DNA of 47,663 nucleotides from Candidatus Harrisonbacteria bacterium (GTDB lineage: Bacteria > Patescibacteriota > Minisyncoccia > UBA6257 > WO2-44-18). Positions 181-42,092 of the stretch are shown piece by piece. The stretch covers positions 1 to 47,663 of the forward strand of contig JACOXP010000008.1 in the NCBI GenBank assembly GCA_016182295.1. The letters are read 5' to 3'. Under the pieces are notes generated by a model. That model did no database searches, was not told the origin of the DNA, and saw only the letters and a list, made by a program, of their open reading frames with translations. Within the stretch, counting starts at the first letter, position 1; every line of letters begins with the position of its first letter. Made by a program: the position numbers and the translations under genes.

Positions 181-513
181 CCATGATTTTAGTGAGGCCA
201 AGAATTCCTCGATCGCACTGTTATTGTAGCTTTCAAGAGGAAACACCGGTTTACCCCGCTGGATAGCTCGCTCACGATCTCGTTTGGCACCGTTTGAATG
301 TTTCCATCCTGGCAGTAGAACAAATGCTTCGCAAGAGAGATCATAGATAGCGTCGTCCAGAGCGTGATAGTAAGCTTCTGGTGCTTGAGCTAATCGTTCA
401 AATCGAGCTGTGTGGCTATGAGGCGCAAAGAAAGAAAATGTTTCTACTAACGACGAGAAGTTAATTGGCGAGCCTGTTAATTTCGGGTAAAATATAGATA
501 TTATATGTTGAAT
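166..513 (-). pseudogene. DUF4406-like (nucleoside 2-deoxyribosyltransferase-like) reading frame lacking a canonical start codon
   Basis: A 115-codon open frame missing from the ORF track because it has no ATG/GTG/TTG near its 5' end. The translation ..IISIFYPKLTGSPINFSS..FAPHSH..YYHALDDAIYDLSCEAFVLLPGWKHSNGAKRDRERAIQRGKPVF.. matches my memory of the DUF4406 pattern (PMTG...N..F, LLPGW..S.GA..E...A...G.PV). The frame runs into the ileS start region. Stop TAA at 168-166. Confidence 0.4.
465..493 (+). promoter_or_regulatory. Candidate ileS promoter (TTGGCG-17nt-TAAAAT)
   Basis: TTGGCG at 465-470, a 17-nt spacer, TAAAAT at 488-493. The ATG is at 505 with no Shine-Dalgarno sequence, which implies a very short leader. 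Confidence 0.4.
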
Positions 514-3500
514 TTACTGAAATCTTTTAATTTGCCTCAAATTGAGGAGAAAATTCTGAAATTTTGGAAAGAAGGCCGGGTTTTTGAAAGAATCCAAGAA
601 TTACGGAAAAAATCGAAAAAAGCCAAACCCTTTAAATTTTTTGAAGGCCCCCCAACCGCCAATGGGCGGCCGGGCATCCATCACGTGCTCGCTCGTTCTT
701 TCAAGGATGTCATTCCGAGATATAAAACAATGCGCGGGTTTTTTGTCTTAAGGCGCGCCGGTTGGGACACTCACGGTCTACCGGTTGAGCTGGAAGTTGA
801 AAAAAAACTTGGCATTAAAACCAAGCAGGAAATAGAAAAATTCGGAATCGTTGAATTTAATACCCAGGCGAAAATGTCCGTCTGGGCGTATAAAAGCGAT
901 TGGGAAAAATTAACCGAACGGATCGGTTTCTGGCTTGATTTTAACGACCCTTACATTACCTACAACAATCCATACATTGAGAGTTTGTGGTGGATCTTTT
1001 CAGAAATAGAGCGGCGGGGCCATTTAAAAAAACTTCACAAAATCGTTCCCTGGTGTCCGCGTTGCCAAACGCCGCTTTCGAGCCACGAGCTTGGACAGCC
1101 GGGCGCGTATCGGACCACCAAAGATCCTTCCGTCTATATCAAATTAAAAATTAAAAATTCAAAAACCAACGATTGCCTGCTGATCTGGACGACAACGCCC
1201 TGGACTTTGCCTGGCAACGTGGCGGTCGCGGTTAATCCGAAACTCACCTACACAAAATATAAGGTTGGCGGTGAATATCTTTGGAGCTATAACGTTCCCC
1301 CGAAGACCGAAAAGGGAGAACCAGAAGTCGTTGAAAAGCTTTCCGGAAAAAAATTGGCCGGCCTGGAATACGAACCGCCCTATCCGAATGAAGGCGCTCA
1401 TAAAGTCATCGAAGCTGATTTTGTTTCCACGGAGGAAGGAACCGGTCTGGTGCATATTGCGCCGGCTTATGGAGAAGACGATTTGCGCGTCGCCGGCCAT
1501 GGGCCGATTCCAATGAGCGTTGATGATCGGGGGATTATGAAAAAGTCCGCCAGCTGGCGGATTCCCGGAGAAGGAAAATTTGTAAAAGAGGCGGACAGTG
1601 ACATTATCGCCGATCTTGAAAAAAGAAAAATTTTGCATTCAAGCGGTTTAATAGAGCACGAATATCCTTTTTGCTGGCGTTGCTCCACCCCGCTTTTGTA
1701 TTTTGCCCGCAAGTCCTGGTTTATCGTAATGTCGAAACTGCGGAGCGAAATGCTTTCGGCCAACAAAAAAATAAACTGGATTCCGGAGCATATCAAGGAA
1801 GGGAGATTTGGAGAATGGCTGCGCGACCTCAAAGATTGGTCGATTTCCCGCAACCGCTACTGGGGAACGCCGCTGCCGATTTGGGAATGCGAAAAGGACG
1901 AGACGCACCGTTTGTTTATCGGCTCGCTCGAAGATCTGAATAAGCACGCTTTCAATAAAAATCGATTTTTTATCGCCAGACATTCCGAGGCCGAGCATAA
2001 TATTAGCGGCACGTTGGCCAACGGTTCCGAAAGTGGCAATAATGCTTCCAAATTGACCGAGAAAGGCGTCAAACAAGCCGAAAGTATGGCTAAAGAATTC
2101 ACGAAGAAAAAGATAGATGTTATTTATCATTCGCCCTTGGCTCGGACAAAAGAAGTCGCGCAAATTATTGCCAAAGCGACGGGGGCGGAAACCATTGCCG
2201 ATAAAAGATTAACCGAAGTCAACGGAGGGAGTTTCAATAACCGTTCGGTTGGAGAATTCGGCGCGTTTTTCAAAAGCAAGATGGAGAGATTTTCCAAAAC
2301 GCCGCCCGGGGGAGAAAATTACTCCGATATTAAAAAGAGAATGCTTGAAGCGATTCGTGATATTAACCAGAAACACAACGAAAAAAATATATTAATTGTC
2401 AGTCACGGCGACCCGCTTTTTGTGCTTGAGGGCGCAGTACAGGGCCTTTCCAATGAAAAAATATCTGAAATTTCGAGCTTGCCGGTGGCCGGCTGGAAAG
2501 AAATAAGCTCCAATAATTGGCCGCTTAACAAAGACGGCGAACTTGATTTGCACCGGCCGTTCATTGACGCCGTTTGTCTTCAATGCCCCGATTGCGAAGC
2601 GAAAATGAACCGCGTTAAAGATGTTGCCGATGCTTGGTTTGATTCAGGCGCGATGCCTTTTGCCCAGTGGCATTACCCTTTTGAGAATAAACAACTGATC
2701 GACAAAGGCGAGCAGTTTCCGGCTGATTACATAACCGAAGGCATTGACCAGACGCGCGGCTGGTTCTACACGCTTCTCGCGGTTTCTATTCTTTTGAAGC
2801 GGGGCGCGCCGTATAAAAATGTCATTTCGCTCGGATTGTTGCTCGATAAACATGGCCAGAAAATGTCTAAATCCAAAGGCAATATTGTTGATCCATGGGA
2901 AATGATTAATAAATACGGCGCCGACGTTCTTCGTTGGTATTTTTTCACGATCAATCCACCCGGAGAGCCGAAGCGCTTTGACGAAAACGATTTGCGTAAA
3001 ACCGTAAACAAATTGTTTATGATTATTTATAACTCGTTTGTTTTTTACAAAACTTACGGCGAGGGAAGCTCCGAACCAATTCCAGCGCTCGATAATTGGG
3101 TTTTAGCCCGATTGCAGGAAACAATCGCGCAAGTTACCGAAGCGATGGATAAGTACGAAATAGGAGACGCGGCAAAATCAATCGAAAGATTAGTTGATGA
3201 TTTTTCCCGATGGTATATTCGCCGCTCCAGAAAAAATGTTTCCGGCCAAACTTTAAATAAAGTGCTTTCAATGTTGAGCAAATTAATCGCCCCCCTCACC
3301 CCGTTTTTCGCCGACGCTCTTTGGCAGTCTCTTGGCAATCGAGAATCCGTTCATTCTGCCGATTGGCCGGAAGTTGAGAAAAAACTTTTTGATAAAAAAT
3401 TACTGGGAGCAATGGCGGAAGTGAGAAAATTAGCCAGTTTGGCTTTAGCGGAACGAGAAAAAGCGGGCATTAAAGTTCGTCAACCTTTGCGAGAGTTAAG

Positions 3501-3897
3501 AATCAAAAATCAAGAATTAAAAAAATCCGATAAAAGTTTGCTGGATATTTTAGCCGATGAAGTAAATGTAAAAACGGTATCTTTTGATGATAAAATCACC
3601 GCTGAAATCGAGCTCGATCTTAAAATCACTCCGGAGCTCAAAAATGAAGGCATTCTCCGCGACTTGATCCGGATGGTTCAGGGATTGCGGCACGACGCGG
3701 GTTATCAGCCGCATAACAAAATCGCTCTGATGGCGGAATTGCCAAGCGATATTTTCAAAGTAGCGCAGGCGAATCTTGCCGAATTTAAAAAAGCCGTGAA
3801 TGCCCAAGAGGTTGAATTTAAACGAGATAAATTCGACGCTGAAATTTCCACCAATCTTGATGGCCAGAAAATTTGGCTGGCGGTGCGAAAAGTTTAG
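505..3897 (+). CDS. ileS: Isoleucyl-tRNA synthetase (Thermus/archaeal-like type) carrying an internal histidine-phosphatase domain
   Basis: 1130 aa. Class I signatures PPTANGRPGIHH and KMSKSKGN; WDTHGLPVE; WCPRCQTPLS; DWSISRNRYWGTPLPIW; EGIDQTRGWFY. From memory it is colinear with Thermus IleRS except for the 1942-2544 insert. Confidence 0.95.
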   Translation: MLNLLKSFNLPQIEEKILKFWKEGRVFERIQELRKKSKKAKPFKFFEGPPTANGRPGIHHVLARSFKDVIPRYKTMRGFFVLRRAGWDTHGLPVELEVEKKLGIKTKQEIEKFGIVEFNTQAKMSVWAYKSDWEKLTERIGFWLDFNDPYITYNNPYIESLWWIFSEIERRGHLKKLHKIVPWCPRCQTPLSSHELGQPGAYRTTKDPSVYIKLKIKNSKTNDCLLIWTTTPWTLPGNVAVAVNPKLTYTKYKVGGEYLWSYNVPPKTEKGEPEVVEKLSGKKLAGLEYEPPYPNEGAHKVIEADFVSTEEGTGLVHIAPAYGEDDLRVAGHGPIPMSVDDRGIMKKSASWRIPGEGKFVKEADSDIIADLEKRKILHSSGLIEHEYPFCWRCSTPLLYFARKSWFIVMSKLRSEMLSANKKINWIPEHIKEGRFGEWLRDLKDWSISRNRYWGTPLPIWECEKDETHRLFIGSLEDLNKHAFNKNRFFIARHSEAEHNISGTLANGSESGNNASKLTEKGVKQAESMAKEFTKKKIDVIYHSPLARTKEVAQIIAKATGAETIADKRLTEVNGGSFNNRSVGEFGAFFKSKMERFSKTPPGGENYSDIKKRMLEAIRDINQKHNEKNILIVSHGDPLFVLEGAVQGLSNEKISEISSLPVAGWKEISSNNWPLNKDGELDLHRPFIDAVCLQCPDCEAKMNRVKDVADAWFDSGAMPFAQWHYPFENKQLIDKGEQFPADYITEGIDQTRGWFYTLLAVSILLKRGAPYKNVISLGLLLDKHGQKMSKSKGNIVDPWEMINKYGADVLRWYFFTINPPGEPKRFDENDLRKTVNKLFMIIYNSFVFYKTYGEGSSEPIPALDNWVLARLQETIAQVTEAMDKYEIGDAAKSIERLVDDFSRWYIRRSRKNVSGQTLNKVLSMLSKLIAPLTPFFADALWQSLGNRESVHSADWPEVEKKLFDKKLLGAMAEVRKLASLALAEREKAGIKVRQPLRELRIKNQELKKSDKSLLDILADEVNVKTVSFDDKITAEIELDLKITPELKNEGILRDLIRMVQGLRHDAGYQPHNKIALMAELPSDIFKVAQANLAEFKKAVNAQEVEFKRDKFDAEISTNLDGQKIWLAVRKV
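1942..2544 (+). other. In-frame histidine phosphatase (PGAM/His_Phos_1-like) domain inserted in IleRS
   Basis: Motifs RHSEAEHN, LTEKGVKQA, SPLARTKEVA, TEVNGGSF, PPGGENYSDI and IVSHGD lie between GSLEDLN and LDLHRPFIDA. Confidence 0.75.
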
Positions 3898-7434: not shown

Positions 7435-7539
7435 TCCACAAAGAAACTCAGATTGCCGATGCCCGCTAATTATTAACTTTATAAGAAATTCAACGTTGCT
7501 TTAATGATATATCCAAACTTATCAAAAGTCAAATTCCGG

Positions 7540-7611
7540 TGCCGGCGGCAAGAATTGAACTTGCGACCTTGGTCTTATGAAAACCCTGCTCTGCCACTGA
7601 GCTACGCCGGC
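7540..7611 (-). tRNA. tRNA with CAU anticodon, elongator type (Met; Ile2-lysidine cannot be excluded)
   Basis: Hand fold: GCCGGCG TA GCTC-AGTGGCA-GAGC A GGGTT-TTCATAA-GACCA AGGTC GCAAG-TTCAATT-CTTGC CGCCGGC A. The 1:72 pair is G:C. There is one G-A mismatch at 27:43. Confidence 0.75.
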
Positions 7612-7631
7612 GACTTTCCTTCGAAAGCATG

Positions 7632-7704
7632 TTGCGGGGACAGGATTTGCACATGTGACCTCCAGGTTATGGGCCTGGCGAGCTAACTACTGCTCTACCC
7701 CGCT
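7632..7704 (-). tRNA. Initiator-like tRNA (CAU) with atypical loops
   Basis: Hand fold: A-GCGGGG TA GAGC-AGTAGTTA-GCTC G CCAGG-CCCATAA-CCTGG AGGTC ACATG-TGCAAAT-CCTGT CCCCGC-A A. Initiator marks present: a 1:72 mismatch (A x A) and A11:U24. Odd features: C33, no GG in the D-loop, G at T-loop position 55, and one T-stem mismatch. Confidence 0.6.
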
Positions 7705-31987: not shown

Positions 31988-33832
31988 ATGAAAGTTAAAC
32001 AATCTTTTTATTCAAACATAATTTGGGCGGTGCTGGTCTTAATGACGCTCTCGGTGGCCTTTTCCTTTCTACTGGGATCGCAGGAGGAAATTGCCAAATT
32101 GAGTATCAATGACTTAGTCAATAAAATTAACGCCGGCGAAGTGAAGGAAATCATTGTTAATGGAGACGATCTCTCGATTATTCTTACCGATGATAGCAAA
32201 GGAACGGCCAGAAAGGAGAGCGAAGCCGGCTTCACCGAAACTTTAAACAATTTCGGAGTGAGTCAAGCCGCCTTGCAGAACGTCAATTTGATCGTTGAGG
32301 ATGAATCGGGTTTGCGCTTCTGGGCCAGTATTCTTATACCGACCCTTTTGCCTTTAATAATCATTATAGTTTTGTTCCTGTTCATTTTCCGTCGCGCTCA
32401 ATCCGGCGCCAGCCAAGCGTTTACTTTCGGCCGGGCTAATATTCGGCTTTTCACCCATCAGAAAGACAAAGCGACTTTCAAAGACATCGCCGGTCTTAAA
32501 GAGGCCAAGCAAGAACTTGAGGAAGTCGTGGATTTTCTTAAAAATCCTAAAAAGTATATCGAAATTGGAGCTCGTATTCCTCGTGGCGTGCTTTTGATGG
32601 GTCCGCCCGGAACCGGTAAAACCCTGCTTGCCCGCGCCGTTGCCGGAGAAGCTGCCGTGCCGTTTTTCCACATTTCCGCCTCCGAATTCGTGGAAATGTT
32701 TGTTGGAGTGGGCGCCGCCCGCACCCGGGACGCTTTTGCTACCGCCAAGAAAGCCGCTCCCGCGATTTTATTCATTGACGAAATTGACGCCGTTGGTCGG
32801 GAACGGGGAGCCGGAGTAGGCGGCGGCCATGACGAACGTGAGCAAACGCTTAATCAAATTCTCGTCGAGATGGATGGATTTGACCGAGATACGCGCGTGA
32901 TAGTTCTTGCGGCCACCAATCGCCCCGATATTTTGGACAGGGCGCTATTGCGGCCAGGCCGCTTCGATCGCCGCGTGATTCTGGATATGCCGGACATCAA
33001 TGATCGCGAAGAAATCCTAAAAATTCACGCCCGCGGCAAGTTATTGGCCAAAGAAGTGGATCTCCGCAAGGTGGCTATCCGTACGCCAGGTTTTTCTGGC
33101 GCTGATCTTGCTAATTTGATGAACGAGGGGGCGATTTTTTCCGCGCGCCAGAATCACAAACAAATCGGACAGCAAGCGCTCCTTGAATCGATCGAGAAAG
33201 TTATTTTGGGACCAGAGCGAAAGGGACGCACTATTTCCGAAAAAGAAAGAAAAATCACCGCCTATCACGAGGCCGGTCACGCGTTGGTGGCAGCCAGTTT
33301 GAAAGACGCCGATCCGGTTCAAAAGGTTTCCATAATCAGTCGCGGGCCGGCCGGGGGATATACTTTGAAATTGCCGATAGAGGAAATGCGTTTGCGTAGC
33401 CGATCCCAATTTATGACGGAGCTTGCGGCGATGCTTGGCGGTTATGCTTCCGAGAAAGAAATTTTTGGAGATATCAGCACCGGCGCTTCCAATGACATTA
33501 AAGAGGCCTCGGAGTTGGCGCGGCGATTGGTGACTAAATATGGAATGAGCGAAAAGCTTGGCCCGATAACTTTCGGGAAAAATGAAGAGCTGGTATTTTT
33601 GGGCAAGGAAATTTCCGCCGAGAAAAATTATTCGGAAAAAGTGGCCGCTGAAATTGACGAGGAGGTGAACGGATTTATCACCCGGGCTTTTGAAACCGCC
33701 AAAAAAGTAATTTCCGTCCGCAGAAAAGTGTTGGATAAAATAGCGGGGGAGCTTATAAAAAAAGAAACTTTGGAACAAGAAGAATTCAACAATTTGCTTA
33801 AACCTTTCAAATTGAAGCCGCTTACGTTATAA
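31988..33832 (+). CDS. ftsH: ATP-dependent zinc metalloprotease FtsH
   Basis: 614 aa. [29 protein letters not shown], second region of homology [20 protein letters not shown], zinc motif HEAGHAL. Confidence 0.95.
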
Positions 33833-33856
33833 TGCTGGTGTCCGAAGGGACATTAA

Positions 33857-33928
33857 CGGCCTGTAGCTCAGTGGTAGAGCAGTGATCTTATAAGTCACGG
33901 GTCGCAGGTTCGATCCCTGCCAGGCCGA
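33857..33928 (+). tRNA. tRNA-Ile with a genomically encoded UAU anticodon
   Basis: Hand fold: CGGCCTG TA GCTC-AGTGGTA-GAGC A GTGAT-CTTATAA-GTCAC GGGTC GCAGG-TTCGATC-CCTGC CAGGCCG A. The anticodon loop CTTATAA gives TAT at positions 34-36. Confidence 0.8.
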
Positions 33929-33995
33929 CACTTGACAAAAGCCTTTTTATATGGTAACTTAACAATCAGAACACCTTTTATTTGAAGGAGGGTTT

Positions 33996-34163
33996 ATGTT
34001 AAGGGCAAGGGAAGCGGAAGTTCGAATCATGAGAGGGATGAGGGTGATGAGCCCTCGTCAGCTCGAGCAAAAAATCTTGATGGAGCGGCGCTCGGAGCGC
34101 ACCGCAGAAAACGTCAAGCTTCTCCAGAAGGCCGTTCTCGCGGTCCTTCTGAAGATCGCCTGA
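33996..34163 (+). CDS. Small basic protein (55 aa), unannotated in the ORF track
   Basis: Translation MLRAREAEVRIMRGMRVMSPRQLEQKILMERRSERTAENVKLLQKAVLAVLLKIA. GAAGGAGGG lies 5 nt upstream. TTGACA-17nt-TAACTT is at 33932-33960. It has its own terminator at 34184-34218 and is GC-richer than its surroundings. Confidence 0.5.
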   Translation: MLRAREAEVRIMRGMRVMSPRQLEQKILMERRSERTAENVKLLQKAVLAVLLKIA

Positions 34164-34183
34164 AACCCCCTCCCTCCGAACGA

Positions 34184-34218
34184 CTCCCCAACGTGAATAC
34201 GTTGGGGAGTTTAATTTT
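34184..34218 (+). terminator. Rho-independent terminator
   Basis: CTCCCCAACG-TGAATA-CGTTGGGGAG followed by TTTAATTTT. Confidence 0.75.
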
Positions 34219-34264
34219 CCACAACTATTCCTTTTTTCATAAAATTGTTATAATATATCCGCCA

Positions 34265-36409
34265 ATGCTGAAACTCGAAACTGAGTTAGCAAAAATTAAA
34301 GGCATCCCGCCCAGATTTTTGGCCAAGTTGGATAAACTTAAAATCAAAACGGTCAAGGATCTTTTGTGGCACTTTCCGTTTCGTTACGAAGATTTTTCCC
34401 AAGTCGTGAAAATTGCCGATTTGAAAGCAAATCAAACCGCCACCGTCAGGGGAATTATTAAACACGTCGGCATGAGGCGTTCCTGGCGGCGAAAAATGAT
34501 GATTGTTGAAGCGATAATCGCTGATGAAACCGCGGGTATCAAAGCAATCTGGTTCAATCAGCCATATATTGCCAGATCGTTGCAGATCGGCCGTCGAATT
34601 AATTTTGCCGGAAAAGTTATTTTTTCAAACGAGGAACTTTGTTTTCAAAGCCCATCCTATGAAATTACCGGATTAACCGCCGAAACGAAACACACCGGTG
34701 GTTTGATCGCGGTCTATCCGGAAACCCGAGGCCTGACTTCTAAAGGATTGCGGTTTCTCATCGCCGCCATTTTTAAAAATTTACAGCCAATTTCGGATTT
34801 TGTTCCGAAAGAAATTTTAGCCGAAGGAAATTTCCCCAATCTATCCGATTCGCTTCATTTAATCCATTTTCCTAAAAACGCCACTGATACTGAAAAAGCG
34901 AGACAACGATTCGCCTTCGCCGACCTCTTTTTATTGCAATTGGTTAACCAGGTGAACCGCTTACGTCTCGCGCGAGAAAAAGCGCCGCCGTTAAAAGTTG
35001 ATAGACAATTTGTCGAATCGGCTATTGCCACTTTGCCGTTTGAATTGACCGGCGCTCAAAAAAGAAGCATTGATGAAATTCTGGAAGATTTGCAAAAACC
35101 TCAGCCGATGAACCGACTCTTGCAAGGCGATGTCGGATCCGGCAAAACCGCCGTGGCGGCGATTGCGGCGCTGGTGGCTGCCGAGAACGGCAAACAAACC
35201 GCCTTTATGGCGCCAACCGAAGTGCTTGCCAACCAGCATTATAAAACCCTGACTACAATTTTCCGAAGTTCTTCAATCGGCATCGGTATCTTAACCGGCA
35301 GCGAAGCCAAAGCTTTTTACGGCGATGGTCTTGAGGGGAAAGTTGGCCGATTCGAATTATTAGAAGATATCGCTAACGGGAAAATAAAATTAATTTTGGG
35401 AACTCATGCTCTTATTTCTTCCAGCGAATCTAAAAAATCGGTTCAGTTTCATGATTTGGCCCTTGCTATTGTTGATGAACAGCATCGCTTCGGAGTTGAC
35501 CAGCGAGCAGCGTTGGTTAAGCAAGAAATTCATCCCGGCGCTGAAACCACCGTCCATTTTCTTTCTATGAGCGCCACACCAATCCCGCGCACCTTAGCCC
35601 TTTCAATATTTGGCGATCTTGATCTCTCGATAATCGATGAGATGCCTAAAGGTAGAAAAGAAGTTATTACTAAAATCGTTTCTCCATCGAATCGTGTCAA
35701 AGCCCACGCTTTTATCCGCGAAGAAGTTAAAAATGGCAGACAGATTTTTGTTATCTGTCCGAGAATTTCCGCCGCTGAAAATTCCGATGAAAAAATGGAC
35801 GAGCGCAAACGCCTTTGGGCGGAAGTTAAAAATGTTACCGAAGAATACGAGCGGCTTTCCAAGAAGGTTTTTCCCGAGTTGCGAGTGGCAATGCTTCACG
35901 GCCGGATGAAATCATTGGAGAAAAATAAAATTATGTCGGAATTCGCTTTGGGAAATTACGACATAATGGTTTCCACTTCCGTTATCGAAGTCGGCGTTGA
36001 TGTGCCTAACGCCACTATTATGGTAATTGAGGGAGCCGACCGATTTGGGCTAGCCCAGCTTTATCAATTCCGGGGACGCGTTGGCCGCGGCGAGCACCAA
36101 TCTTACTGTCTGCTTTTTACTGATTCTTCCTCCTCGACTACCTTGAACCGCCTAGACGCTCTTTTGAAAGCGAAAAACGGATTCGAGCTCGCCGAAAAAG
36201 ATTTGGCGATTCGCGGACCGGGAGAATTCATTGGCGATAAACAAACTGGAATGCCCGATTTGGCGATGAAGGCGCTCAATAATATTCAATTGGTAAAAAC
36301 CGCCCGAACCGCTGCTGTCAAAGTGCTCAAAACCGACGCTTCTTTAACCAAGTACCCCCAACTAAAAAACCAATTGATAGCCTTCCGAAACCAGATCCAT
36401 TTTGAATAA
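34265..36409 (+). CDS. recG: ATP-dependent DNA helicase RecG
   Basis: 714 aa from ATG 34265; the track ORF extends through the terminator. Wedge domain, GDVGSGKTAVA, DEQHRFG, TATPIPRTL, QLYQFRGRVGRG. Confidence 0.9.
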   Translation: MLKLETELAKIKGIPPRFLAKLDKLKIKTVKDLLWHFPFRYEDFSQVVKIADLKANQTATVRGIIKHVGMRRSWRRKMMIVEAIIADETAGIKAIWFNQPYIARSLQIGRRINFAGKVIFSNEELCFQSPSYEITGLTAETKHTGGLIAVYPETRGLTSKGLRFLIAAIFKNLQPISDFVPKEILAEGNFPNLSDSLHLIHFPKNATDTEKARQRFAFADLFLLQLVNQVNRLRLAREKAPPLKVDRQFVESAIATLPFELTGAQKRSIDEILEDLQKPQPMNRLLQGDVGSGKTAVAAIAALVAAENGKQTAFMAPTEVLANQHYKTLTTIFRSSSIGIGILTGSEAKAFYGDGLEGKVGRFELLEDIANGKIKLILGTHALISSSESKKSVQFHDLALAIVDEQHRFGVDQRAALVKQEIHPGAETTVHFLSMSATPIPRTLALSIFGDLDLSIIDEMPKGRKEVITKIVSPSNRVKAHAFIREEVKNGRQIFVICPRISAAENSDEKMDERKRLWAEVKNVTEEYERLSKKVFPELRVAMLHGRMKSLEKNKIMSEFALGNYDIMVSTSVIEVGVDVPNATIMVIEGADRFGLAQLYQFRGRVGRGEHQSYCLLFTDSSSSTTLNRLDALLKAKNGFELAEKDLAIRGPGEFIGDKQTGMPDLAMKALNNIQLVKTARTAAVKVLKTDASLTKYPQLKNQLIAFRNQIHFE

Positions 36410-41006: not shown

Positions 41007-41081
41007 GGTCCTATCGTCTAGCCTGGTCTAGGACGCCTCCCTTTCACGGAGGAAACACGGGTTCGAATCCCGTTGGGACTA
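41007..41081 (+). tRNA. tRNA-Glu (anticodon UUC)
   Basis: GGTCCTA TC GTCTAGCCTGGTCTAGGAC G CCTCC-CTTTCAC-GGAGG AAAC ACGGG-TTCGAAT-CCCGT TGGGACT A. It starts 2 nt after the ccdA stop and ends 3 nt before the tsaD ATG. Confidence 0.85.
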
Positions 41082-41084
41082 CAA

Positions 41085-42092
41085 ATGCGTATTTTAGCCA
41101 TTGAGACAAGTTGTGACGAAACCTCCGTCGCTTTAGTCGATTGTAAGGGAACTTTAAAGAACCCCAAGTTTAAGGTTTTAAAAAACCTTGTTTCTTCGCA
41201 AATTAAGGTTCACCGGCCTTTTGGAGGGGTGGTGCCAACTTTGGCAAAAAGAGAACACCAGAAAAATCTACCTAAAATTATCGGGAAAATTGTAAATCGT
41301 AAATTGAAAATAGACGTGATTGCGATTACTGTCGGTCCGGGTCTCGAGCCGGCGCTTTGGGCGGGAATCGAATTCGCCAAAGATCTGGCAAAAAAATTAA
41401 AAAAACCGCTTATCGGCGCCAACCACATGGAGGGACACCTTTATTCAAACTGGTTGGAAAATCCATCCGTGAAATTCCCAGCCGTCGCGCTTGTGGTCAG
41501 CGGGGGCCACACGATTCTCCTCAAGATGGATTCACTGACCAAATGGAAAAAACTTGGAGAGACGCGCGATGACGCGGCCGGCGAAGCGTTTGATAAGGTG
41601 GCGCGGCTTTTGGGTTTGCCATATCCGGGGGGACCGGAAATACAAAAACTCGCTTCCAAAGGAAATCCGGCGGCGGTCAAATTTCCGCGCCCGATGCTCA
41701 CCGACAAAAATTTTGACTTTAGTTTCTCCGGTCTTAAAACTTCAGTTCTTTATTACTTGCGCGCTAACCCATTAGTGGCCAGCAATCATACTCAAGCGGC
41801 TGATATAGCTGCCAGTTTCCAGCAGGCGATTGTGGATGTTTTAGCTGGTAAAACGGTTCGCGCCGCCAGGCGATCCGGCGCCAAATCCGTTCTTTTATGC
41901 GGAGGAGTTTCGGCCAACAAACCTCTGCGCGAGGGTTTGGGATCTCACATTCGGAATTTAGGAATGAAATTTTTTGTGCCTGATTTTGAATACAACACCG
42001 ACAACGCGGCGATGATTGCCGCCGCCGCGTATATTCAAAAACTTCGCGGGAAGAAACTAAAAATCACCGCCCAATCCAACCTTAATTTGTAG
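41085..42092 (+). CDS. tsaD: tRNA N6-adenosine threonylcarbamoyltransferase TsaD (Kae1/Gcp)
   Basis: 335 aa from ATG 41085; the track ORF starts inside the tRNA. ILAIETSCDETS, GANHMEGH, VVSGGHT, GEAFDKVARLLGLPYPGGP, GGVSAN. Confidence 0.9.
   Translation: MRILAIETSCDETSVALVDCKGTLKNPKFKVLKNLVSSQIKVHRPFGGVVPTLAKREHQKNLPKIIGKIVNRKLKIDVIAITVGPGLEPALWAGIEFAKDLAKKLKKPLIGANHMEGHLYSNWLENPSVKFPAVALVVSGGHTILLKMDSLTKWKKLGETRDDAAGEAFDKVARLLGLPYPGGPEIQKLASKGNPAAVKFPRPMLTDKNFDFSFSGLKTSVLYYLRANPLVASNHTQAADIAASFQQAIVDVLAGKTVRAARRSGAKSVLLCGGVSANKPLREGLGSHIRNLGMKFFVPDFEYNTDNAAMIAAAAYIQKLRGKKLKITAQSNLNL

Follow-up and report, generated by a model that had tools for sequence, protein, structure and literature searches.

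A tRNA-Ile gene with a genomically encoded UAU anticodon is present on contig C11 of a Candidatus Harrisonbacteria assembly, a stretch of 47,663 nucleotides analyzed over its whole length (hereafter the window). Comparison of the gene and its surroundings with those of related genomes suggests that its product is very probably functional, decoding AUA and replacing the lysidine system, i.e., tRNA-Ile2(CAU) together with TilS (Table 1). The metagenome-assembled genome of this ultra-small Patescibacteria (CPR) bacterium (632 kb, 19 contigs, 44% G+C, estimated to be 91% complete with 1.2% contamination) carries 43 tRNA genes, including one Ile(GAU), one Ile(UAU) and three CAU tRNAs, and tRNA-Ile(UAU) is the only candidate AUA reader among them.

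Table 1 Coordinates of the tRNA-Ile(UAU) gene and of associated features (positions refer to the window unless another contig is named)
Feature	Position	Strand	Evidence and remarks
tRNA-Ile(UAU)	33857..33929	+	73 nt; ARAGORN, Rfam, cloverleaf, covariation among 11 orthologs
Promoter-like TTCAAA-16-TATAAT	33806..33833	+	Inside the end of ftsH, ~24 nt 5' of the tRNA; consensus match only
ftsH	31988..33832	+	NCBIfam FtsH, 774 bits; upstream neighbor of the tRNA, gap of 24 nt
recG	34193..36409	+	NCBIfam RecG, 798 bits; downstream neighbor, common to several relatives (tblastn on their loci)
Type-2 (eukaryote-like) IleRS, presumed charging enzyme	505..3897	+	TIGR00392, 854 bits; MupA/MupB-like matches
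Elongator-type tRNA(CAU), presumed tRNA-Met reading AUG	7538..7611	-	ARAGORN
Initiator-type tRNA(CAU)	7631..7704	-	A1xA72 mismatch, A11:T24 (ARAGORN drawing)
TsaD (t6A37 synthesis)	41073..42092	+	PF00814, 290 bits at 41172-42020
Third CAU tRNA, Ile2-like	contig C5, 10383-10453 (= L104:984-1054)	-	61 bits as tRNA

The gene was assigned anticodon tat and isotype Ile by ARAGORN, which called six tRNAs in the window, and its full-model match to RF00005 at 33857-33928 (71 bits, E = 1.2e-13) is the top tRNA score of the window. According to the sequence and the ARAGORN drawing, the acceptor stem has 7 bp and begins with the pair C1-G72, the D-loop is AGTGGTA, GG included, the anticodon loop CTTATAA and the T-loop TTCGATC, while the discriminator is A73 and CCA is not encoded. 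The encoded UAU anticodon, the canonical cloverleaf and the loop motifs given in the preliminary description are seen in the sequence and the drawing, and ARAGORN and Rfam place the anticodon in an identical register. In an alignment of 11 orthologs from the same order, 99% of the stem cells are paired, against 32-43% in a control in which the partner was slid by 1-3 columns, compensatory changes altering both sides occur at 13 of the 21 stem pairs, and CTTATA is invariant. Since the stems pair and covary in the orthologs as opposed to the slid controls, these comparisons indicate that the gene is real and its cloverleaf under purifying selection. Of the other tRNAs of the genome, tRNA-Ile(GAU) is the nearest, the two being 77% identical overall and sharing an identical D-arm, A73 and A37-A38; it is on these sequence features that charging with Ile is predicted. 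The promoter-like element upstream fits the consensus at 10 of 12 positions, three such sites being present in the region versus 0.7 expected from shuffles.

A count of AUA codons, suggested in the preliminary description, found AUA to be frequent and aligned with Ile. Across 557 long, non-overlapping ORFs, 95% of which contain it, AUA amounts to 19% of the Ile codons and to 15.0 per 1000 codons overall, a level that would rank as high usage by Muraski et al. 2025 (PMC12514573). At the AUA columns of ftsH and recG, homologs have Ile in 53%, Leu in 14%, Val in 10% and Met in 4% of cases (a partly circular measure, as the same genetic code was applied in translating the relatives); AUU and AUC columns have a profile like that of AUA, and AUG columns have Met in 50%. 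These data indicate that AUA is an ordinary Ile codon in this genome, and, being frequent, it needs an efficient reader, for which tRNA-Ile(UAU) is the only evident candidate.

The search for tilS, likewise proposed at the outset, found the gene neither in this genome nor in 40 others from its order. In the genome itself, TIGR02432, the model of the TilS N-terminus, and PF01171 gave sub-threshold matches only, of which the one common to both profiles is MnmA by NCBIfam and the other lies in a glycosyltransferase-like ORF. A decayed tilS was also rejected, as tblastn with five Patescibacteria TilS proteins left no trace of a gene or remnant (best E = 0.28). The genome being 91% complete, a missing tilS there is no proof on its own, and the argument rests on the relatives: no TilS over the cut-off was found in any of 41 genomes of the order (this one, 20 of the same family and 20 of other families), many of them 98-100% complete. 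TiaS was rejected as an alternative C34 modifier, since PF08489 was detected in 0 of these 41 genomes and, as a positive control, in four archaea. In turn, at least 23 of the 41 were verified to carry tRNA-Ile(tat).

The distribution of the two systems in a sample of 401 Patescibacteria genomes is mutually exclusive. TilS is found over the cut-off in 148 genomes (37%) and a real tRNA(UAU) in about 226 (~56%), after dropping matches without a complementary anticodon stem, while the two occur together in 0 of 401; both the stem check and the cross-tabulation of TilS against tRNA(UAU) were made by eye, and the sampled genomes are related to one another and hence not independent observations. About 27 genomes, several of them less than 90% complete, have neither. 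In the class to which this genome belongs, four TilS-positive genomes stand against 16 with UAU among the 20 listed. The tRNA(UAU) matches came from two patterns, one for A38-type tRNAs (139 genomes; one in the reversed-pattern control) and one with C, U or G at position 38 (95 genomes; six in the reversed-pattern control). Used alone, the A38 pattern overlooks C38 and U38 forms and produces a spurious group of some 115 genomes lacking both systems; the covariance model identified tRNA-Ile(tat) with C38 in four of five A38-pattern-negative relatives, and the second pattern added about 88 genomes, although the patterns still miss variants. The preliminary description had called encoded UAU isoacceptors rare, which holds among textbook bacteria and not in Patescibacteria, where they are common.

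Sub-cut-off TilS-like matches (about 1e-10 to 1e-15) were observed in G176, G266, G362, G401, G426, G092 and G196, most of which carry tRNA(UAU). The only genomes combining tRNA(UAU) with such matches are G176, G266 and G362 (about 1e-14), and G196, whose 86.8-bit fragments come near the cut-off; the matches may represent a PP-loop paralog or a decaying tilS. Position 38 of tRNA-Ile(UAU) splits by lineage into A38 (CTTATAA, as in this genome) and C38/U38 (CTTATAC/T). In Escherichia coli, IleRS uses position 38 as an identity element, and this split may hence mirror differences in IleRS.

The CAU tRNAs of TilS-positive Patescibacteria fall into three types: initiator, a tilS-adjacent type ('c') and a type 'a', presumed to be Ile2. 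In the window, the elongator-type tRNA(CAU) is nearest to type 'c' (71.6% identity) and the initiator-type gene has 78.5% identity to the initiator type of the TilS-positive relatives; the single elongator CAU tRNA reported earlier for the window was correctly recognized, the third CAU tRNA of the genome being on another contig. The initiator-type gene has several oddities, namely the A1xA72 mismatch, C33 instead of the near-universal U, and the T-loop TGCAAAT with G at position 55.

The third CAU tRNA bears on a further point of the preliminary description, according to which tilS together with a bona fide tRNA-Ile2(CAU) would reduce the UAU gene to an extra copy: one Ile2-like tRNA(CAU) does exist, on contig C5, and no tilS accompanies it. 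This copy is without G18G19 and has A54 in place of T54, while its orthologs in G001 and G015 are canonical. The G015 copy finds its best and full-length match in E. coli in a CAT-anticodon tRNA-Ile (PGAP name; ileX/ileY type) with 84% identity, present in 5421 of 5426 genomes, whereas BLAST against E. coli of the divergent contig C5 copy and of the elongator CAU tRNA of the window returned no match. The exact anticodon arm of the Ile2-like tRNA occurs in nine of the 41 TilS-less genomes of the order. A replacement of the tRNA-Ile2(CAU) gene by a TAT gene is thus not what is seen here, as an Ile2-like CAU copy persists without TilS, and the lack of a CAU tRNA-Ile2 gene is not clearly a strict criterion for TilS-independent AUA decoding. 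Without modification, the CAU form would be expected to receive Met and to read AUG (Muramatsu 1988, as cited in PMC13752280), and the contig C5 tRNA may for this reason be a relic that does no harm, or serve as an additional tRNA-Met.

Among the enzymes that could act on the anticodon loop, TsaC is encoded on contig C16 (PF01300, 138 bits) and TsaD in the window, which makes t6A at position 37 of tRNA-Ile(UAU) plausible, and A37 would probably be modified in this way. MnmG was not found in the genome, the sole match to MnmE covers the GTPase domain only, and MnmA is present by NCBIfam. Since MnmE and MnmG were not found, U34 would be unlikely to bear an xm5 group, and wobble uridines may, given MnmA, be thiolated without it. 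The same lack of MnmE and MnmG, together with the split codon box, makes modification of U34 by another enzyme conceivable. There is some chance, albeit a minor one, that U34 carries a modification made by an enzyme so far unlinked to AUA decoding, or that the Ile2-like tRNA(CAU) is the substrate of a novel C34 modifier. If this were true, more than half of the Patescibacteria, a very large phylum, would distinguish AUA from AUG by chemical or ribosomal means that have yet to be described.

A reading in which AUA is decoded mainly by the Ile2-like tRNA(CAU) through a C34 modifier unrelated to TilS and TiaS, with the UAU tRNA as an auxiliary, would account for the retention of the Ile2-like gene, for its exact anticodon arm in nine TilS-less relatives and for the 84% identity of the G015 copy to the E. 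coli CAT-anticodon tRNA-Ile. We consider it quite unlikely, as the Ile2-like CAU tRNA has a patchy occurrence while almost all TilS-less genomes have the UAU tRNA, the missing G18G19 and T54 of the copy in this genome suggest relaxed constraint, no candidate enzyme was found, and the strict exclusion between TilS and tRNA(UAU) is what functional replacement predicts.

The gene order around ftsH gives further support to replacement. In all 11 TilS-positive Patescibacteria genomes examined (loci L038-L043 and L117-L124), tilS immediately precedes ftsH, and clusters of three to four CAU tRNAs are often found ahead of tilS. In the window, the slot directly upstream of ftsH is assembled and contains no tilS. 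In turn, the gene preceding tRNA(UAU) is ftsH at 12 of the 14 loci from the order and at 9 of the 30 from the phylum sample. This arrangement bears on the possibility that the UAU tRNA is an extra isoacceptor and that tilS resides in the unassembled 9% of the genome, acting on the Ile2-like CAU tRNA of contig C5. The incompleteness of the genome and the existence of that tRNA would allow for it, and bacteria with both tilS and a tRNA-Ile(TAT) gene, such as Lactobacillus plantarum and L. casei, are on record (Taniguchi et al. 2013, PMC3575796). However, with the tilS slot assembled and empty of tilS, no TilS over the cut-off in any of the 41 members of the order, of which many reach 98-100% completeness, and the combination of TilS over the cut-off with a real tRNA(UAU) missing from all 401, such a scenario is extremely unlikely.

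The tRNA-Ile(UAU) probably descends from the tRNA-Ile2(CAU) lineage. The mean identity of 34 UAU tRNAs is 70.4% to type 'a', compared with 72.4% to each other, 61.9% to the elongator type and 56.6% to the initiator type, although similarity among tRNAs is weak evidence and no proof of descent, the values for the own tRNA-Ile(GAU) being comparable (69-77%). In the TilS-positive genome G048 (L123), a type 'a' CAU tRNA is located directly downstream of ftsH, i.e., in the slot of the UAU tRNA here. Together with the 70.4% identity to type 'a', this position fits a history in which a C34-to-U change in the tRNA-Ile2(CAU) lineage, at or near the ftsH locus, would have been followed by loss of tilS.

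Two last alternatives carry practically no weight. That the gene is a relic, a contaminant or the cargo of a mobile element outside the core translation set could be argued from the metagenomic origin of the assembly and its 1.2% estimated contamination, but the gene sits on a contig of 47.7 kb with ftsH ending 24 nt ahead of it and recG following, keeps these neighbors at 12 of 14 loci from the order, preserves its fold by compensatory changes, and is the sole candidate AUA reader among 43 tRNAs. AUA codes for Met in many mitochondria, and a reassigned stop codon is known in other Patescibacteria lineages. Such precedents, and the fact that an unmodified U34 would read AUG too, are what speaks for charging of tRNA(UAU) with an amino acid other than Ile (e.g., Met) and a reassignment of AUA, against which stand the AUA columns with Ile in 53% and Met in 4%, like those of AUU and AUC, the nearest paralog being a tRNA-Ile(GAU) with 77% identity, an identical D-arm, A73 and A37-A38, and the existence of separate elongator and initiator tRNA-Met genes.

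If the tRNA-Ile(UAU) replaces the lysidine system, it would be charged with Ile by the type-2 IleRS of the same window, as proposed for Bifidobacterium and Neorickettsia. This enzyme has a DUF5915 C-terminus and no Pfam match to zf-FPG_IleRS, and its nearest structures in the PDB are of type 2 (8c8w/1ile, 784 bits) versus 312 bits for the type-1 enzyme of S. aureus (1ffy), so that the analogy with Mycoplasma mobile made in the preliminary description fails at the level of IleRS. The IleRS of M. mobile is of type 1 and recognizes U34 by means of Arg865, a residue of its zinc-binding domain (Taniguchi et al. 2013, PMC3575796). There being no zinc-binding domain here to hold Arg865, recognition of this kind cannot apply and that mechanism was ruled out; the type-1 architecture with a zinc-binding domain, which would carry the Arg at the position of E. 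coli Trp905, was not found in this IleRS. The type of IleRS was also rejected as a correlate of TilS loss, since type 2 is phylum-wide, with DUF5915 in 373 of 401 genomes, TilS-positive and TilS-negative alike. The type-2 enzyme is therefore a shared background of the phylum that does not track TilS loss and may be permissive for the switch.

DUF5915 E-values are generally stronger in TilS-positive genomes (1e-25 to 1e-45) and often 1e-10 to 1e-20 in UAU genomes, a gap which could stem from divergence between lineages or from adaptation at the anticodon-binding end. A complete His_Phos_1 (PGAM-like) domain (Pfam, 115 bits) is inserted in frame within the catalytic body of the IleRS (aa 489-657, window 1969-2475), and the IleRS reading frames of family f39, which has UAU, measure about 1270-1550 aa.

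TilS-independent decoding of AUA is already known, and this gene is a further case, of the type-2 IleRS variety. Its closest known counterpart, judging by sequence features, is Bifidobacterium/Neorickettsia rather than M. mobile. The TilS-less Bifidobacterium and Neorickettsia have a eukaryote-type IleRS and tRNA-Ile(UAU) (Taniguchi et al. 2013, PMC3575796) and have in common with the present case an encoded TAT anticodon, the absence of tilS, a type-2 IleRS and the retention of Ile as the meaning of AUA, both systems being known from sequence. They differ from it in phylum, in the linkage of the tRNA to ftsH and the histidine-phosphatase insert of the IleRS seen here, and in that the trait is found in isolated genera there and in more than half of the sampled phylum here. 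With M. mobile the window shares a tRNA-Ile(UAU) replacing the lysidine system, the absence of tilS and a small genome and, by analogy, possibly also an unmodified U34 and a ribosome that helps to reject AUG. As in M. mobile, either competition from tRNA-Met or discrimination by the ribosome, or the two combined, would reserve AUG for Met. The window differs from M. mobile in the type of IleRS and in the lack of the zinc-binding domain, and the recognition of U34 must differ as well.

That a UAU tRNA-Ile can read AUA in a bacterium is a trait shared with the lactobacilli and with a laboratory case, the suppressor with UAU tRNA-Ile of a tilS deletion in B. subtilis (Kohrer et al. 2014, PMC3919564). 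L. plantarum and L. casei keep tilS beside tRNA-Ile(UAU) (PMC3575796), unlike the phylum sample, in which no TilS-positive genome has a real tRNA(UAU). An encoded U34 reading AUA along with an IleRS of eukaryotic or archaeal type is also a likeness to other domains of life. In eukaryotes, pseudouridylation of U34 and U36 gives the minor tRNA-Ile the anticodon pseudouridine-A-pseudouridine, and tRNA-Ile(UAU) is found in Nanoarchaeum and Korarchaeum, archaea that have no TiaS.

TilS has been discussed as an antibacterial target, and no literature was found tying lysidine or TilS to any CPR group. The enzyme, generally regarded as essential in bacteria, was present in 98% of bacterial genomes in a 2018 survey (PMC6063277), and tRNA-Ile(UAU) is on record for nine bacterial species in Taniguchi et al. 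2013 (PMC3575796) and 19 in tRNADB-CE (PMC4013482), and was termed "rare cases" in a 2026 paper (PMC13752280). The scale observed in Patescibacteria contrasts with this view of a near-universal TilS and a rare UAU anticodon, and makes the window one instance of a lineage-wide exception. New here are the exclusion table, the arrangements tilS-ftsH versus ftsH-tRNA(UAU), the intermediate-like arrangement of G048, the A38/C38 split, and the orphan Ile2-like tRNA. The phylum constitutes a natural experiment on how a type-2 IleRS accepts U34 and how misreading of AUG is avoided, and also, through tilS-ftsH versus ftsH-tRNA(UAU), on the switch itself. For annotation, E. coli rules are unfit for the CAU and UAU tRNAs of these genomes.

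Both states were observed within one GTDB genus: G371 has tRNA-Ile(UAU) on contig C16 (L114, c4752-4828) and no TilS, versus G078 (contig C8; L113, L115 and L116), with TilS and no UAU match. A reconstruction of the switch from this pair was given up, as synteny stops at the tRNA in spite of 81% identity in the adjoining protein, and the difference could represent a recent switch or a binning artefact. Finally, between the tRNA and recG of the window lies a 55-aa Arg-rich ORF (33996-34163, forward strand) with a strong GGAGG ribosome-binding site, followed on its 3' side by a 13-bp hairpin at 34182-34211; the annotated start of recG may be too early, as the family match begins at residue 26.
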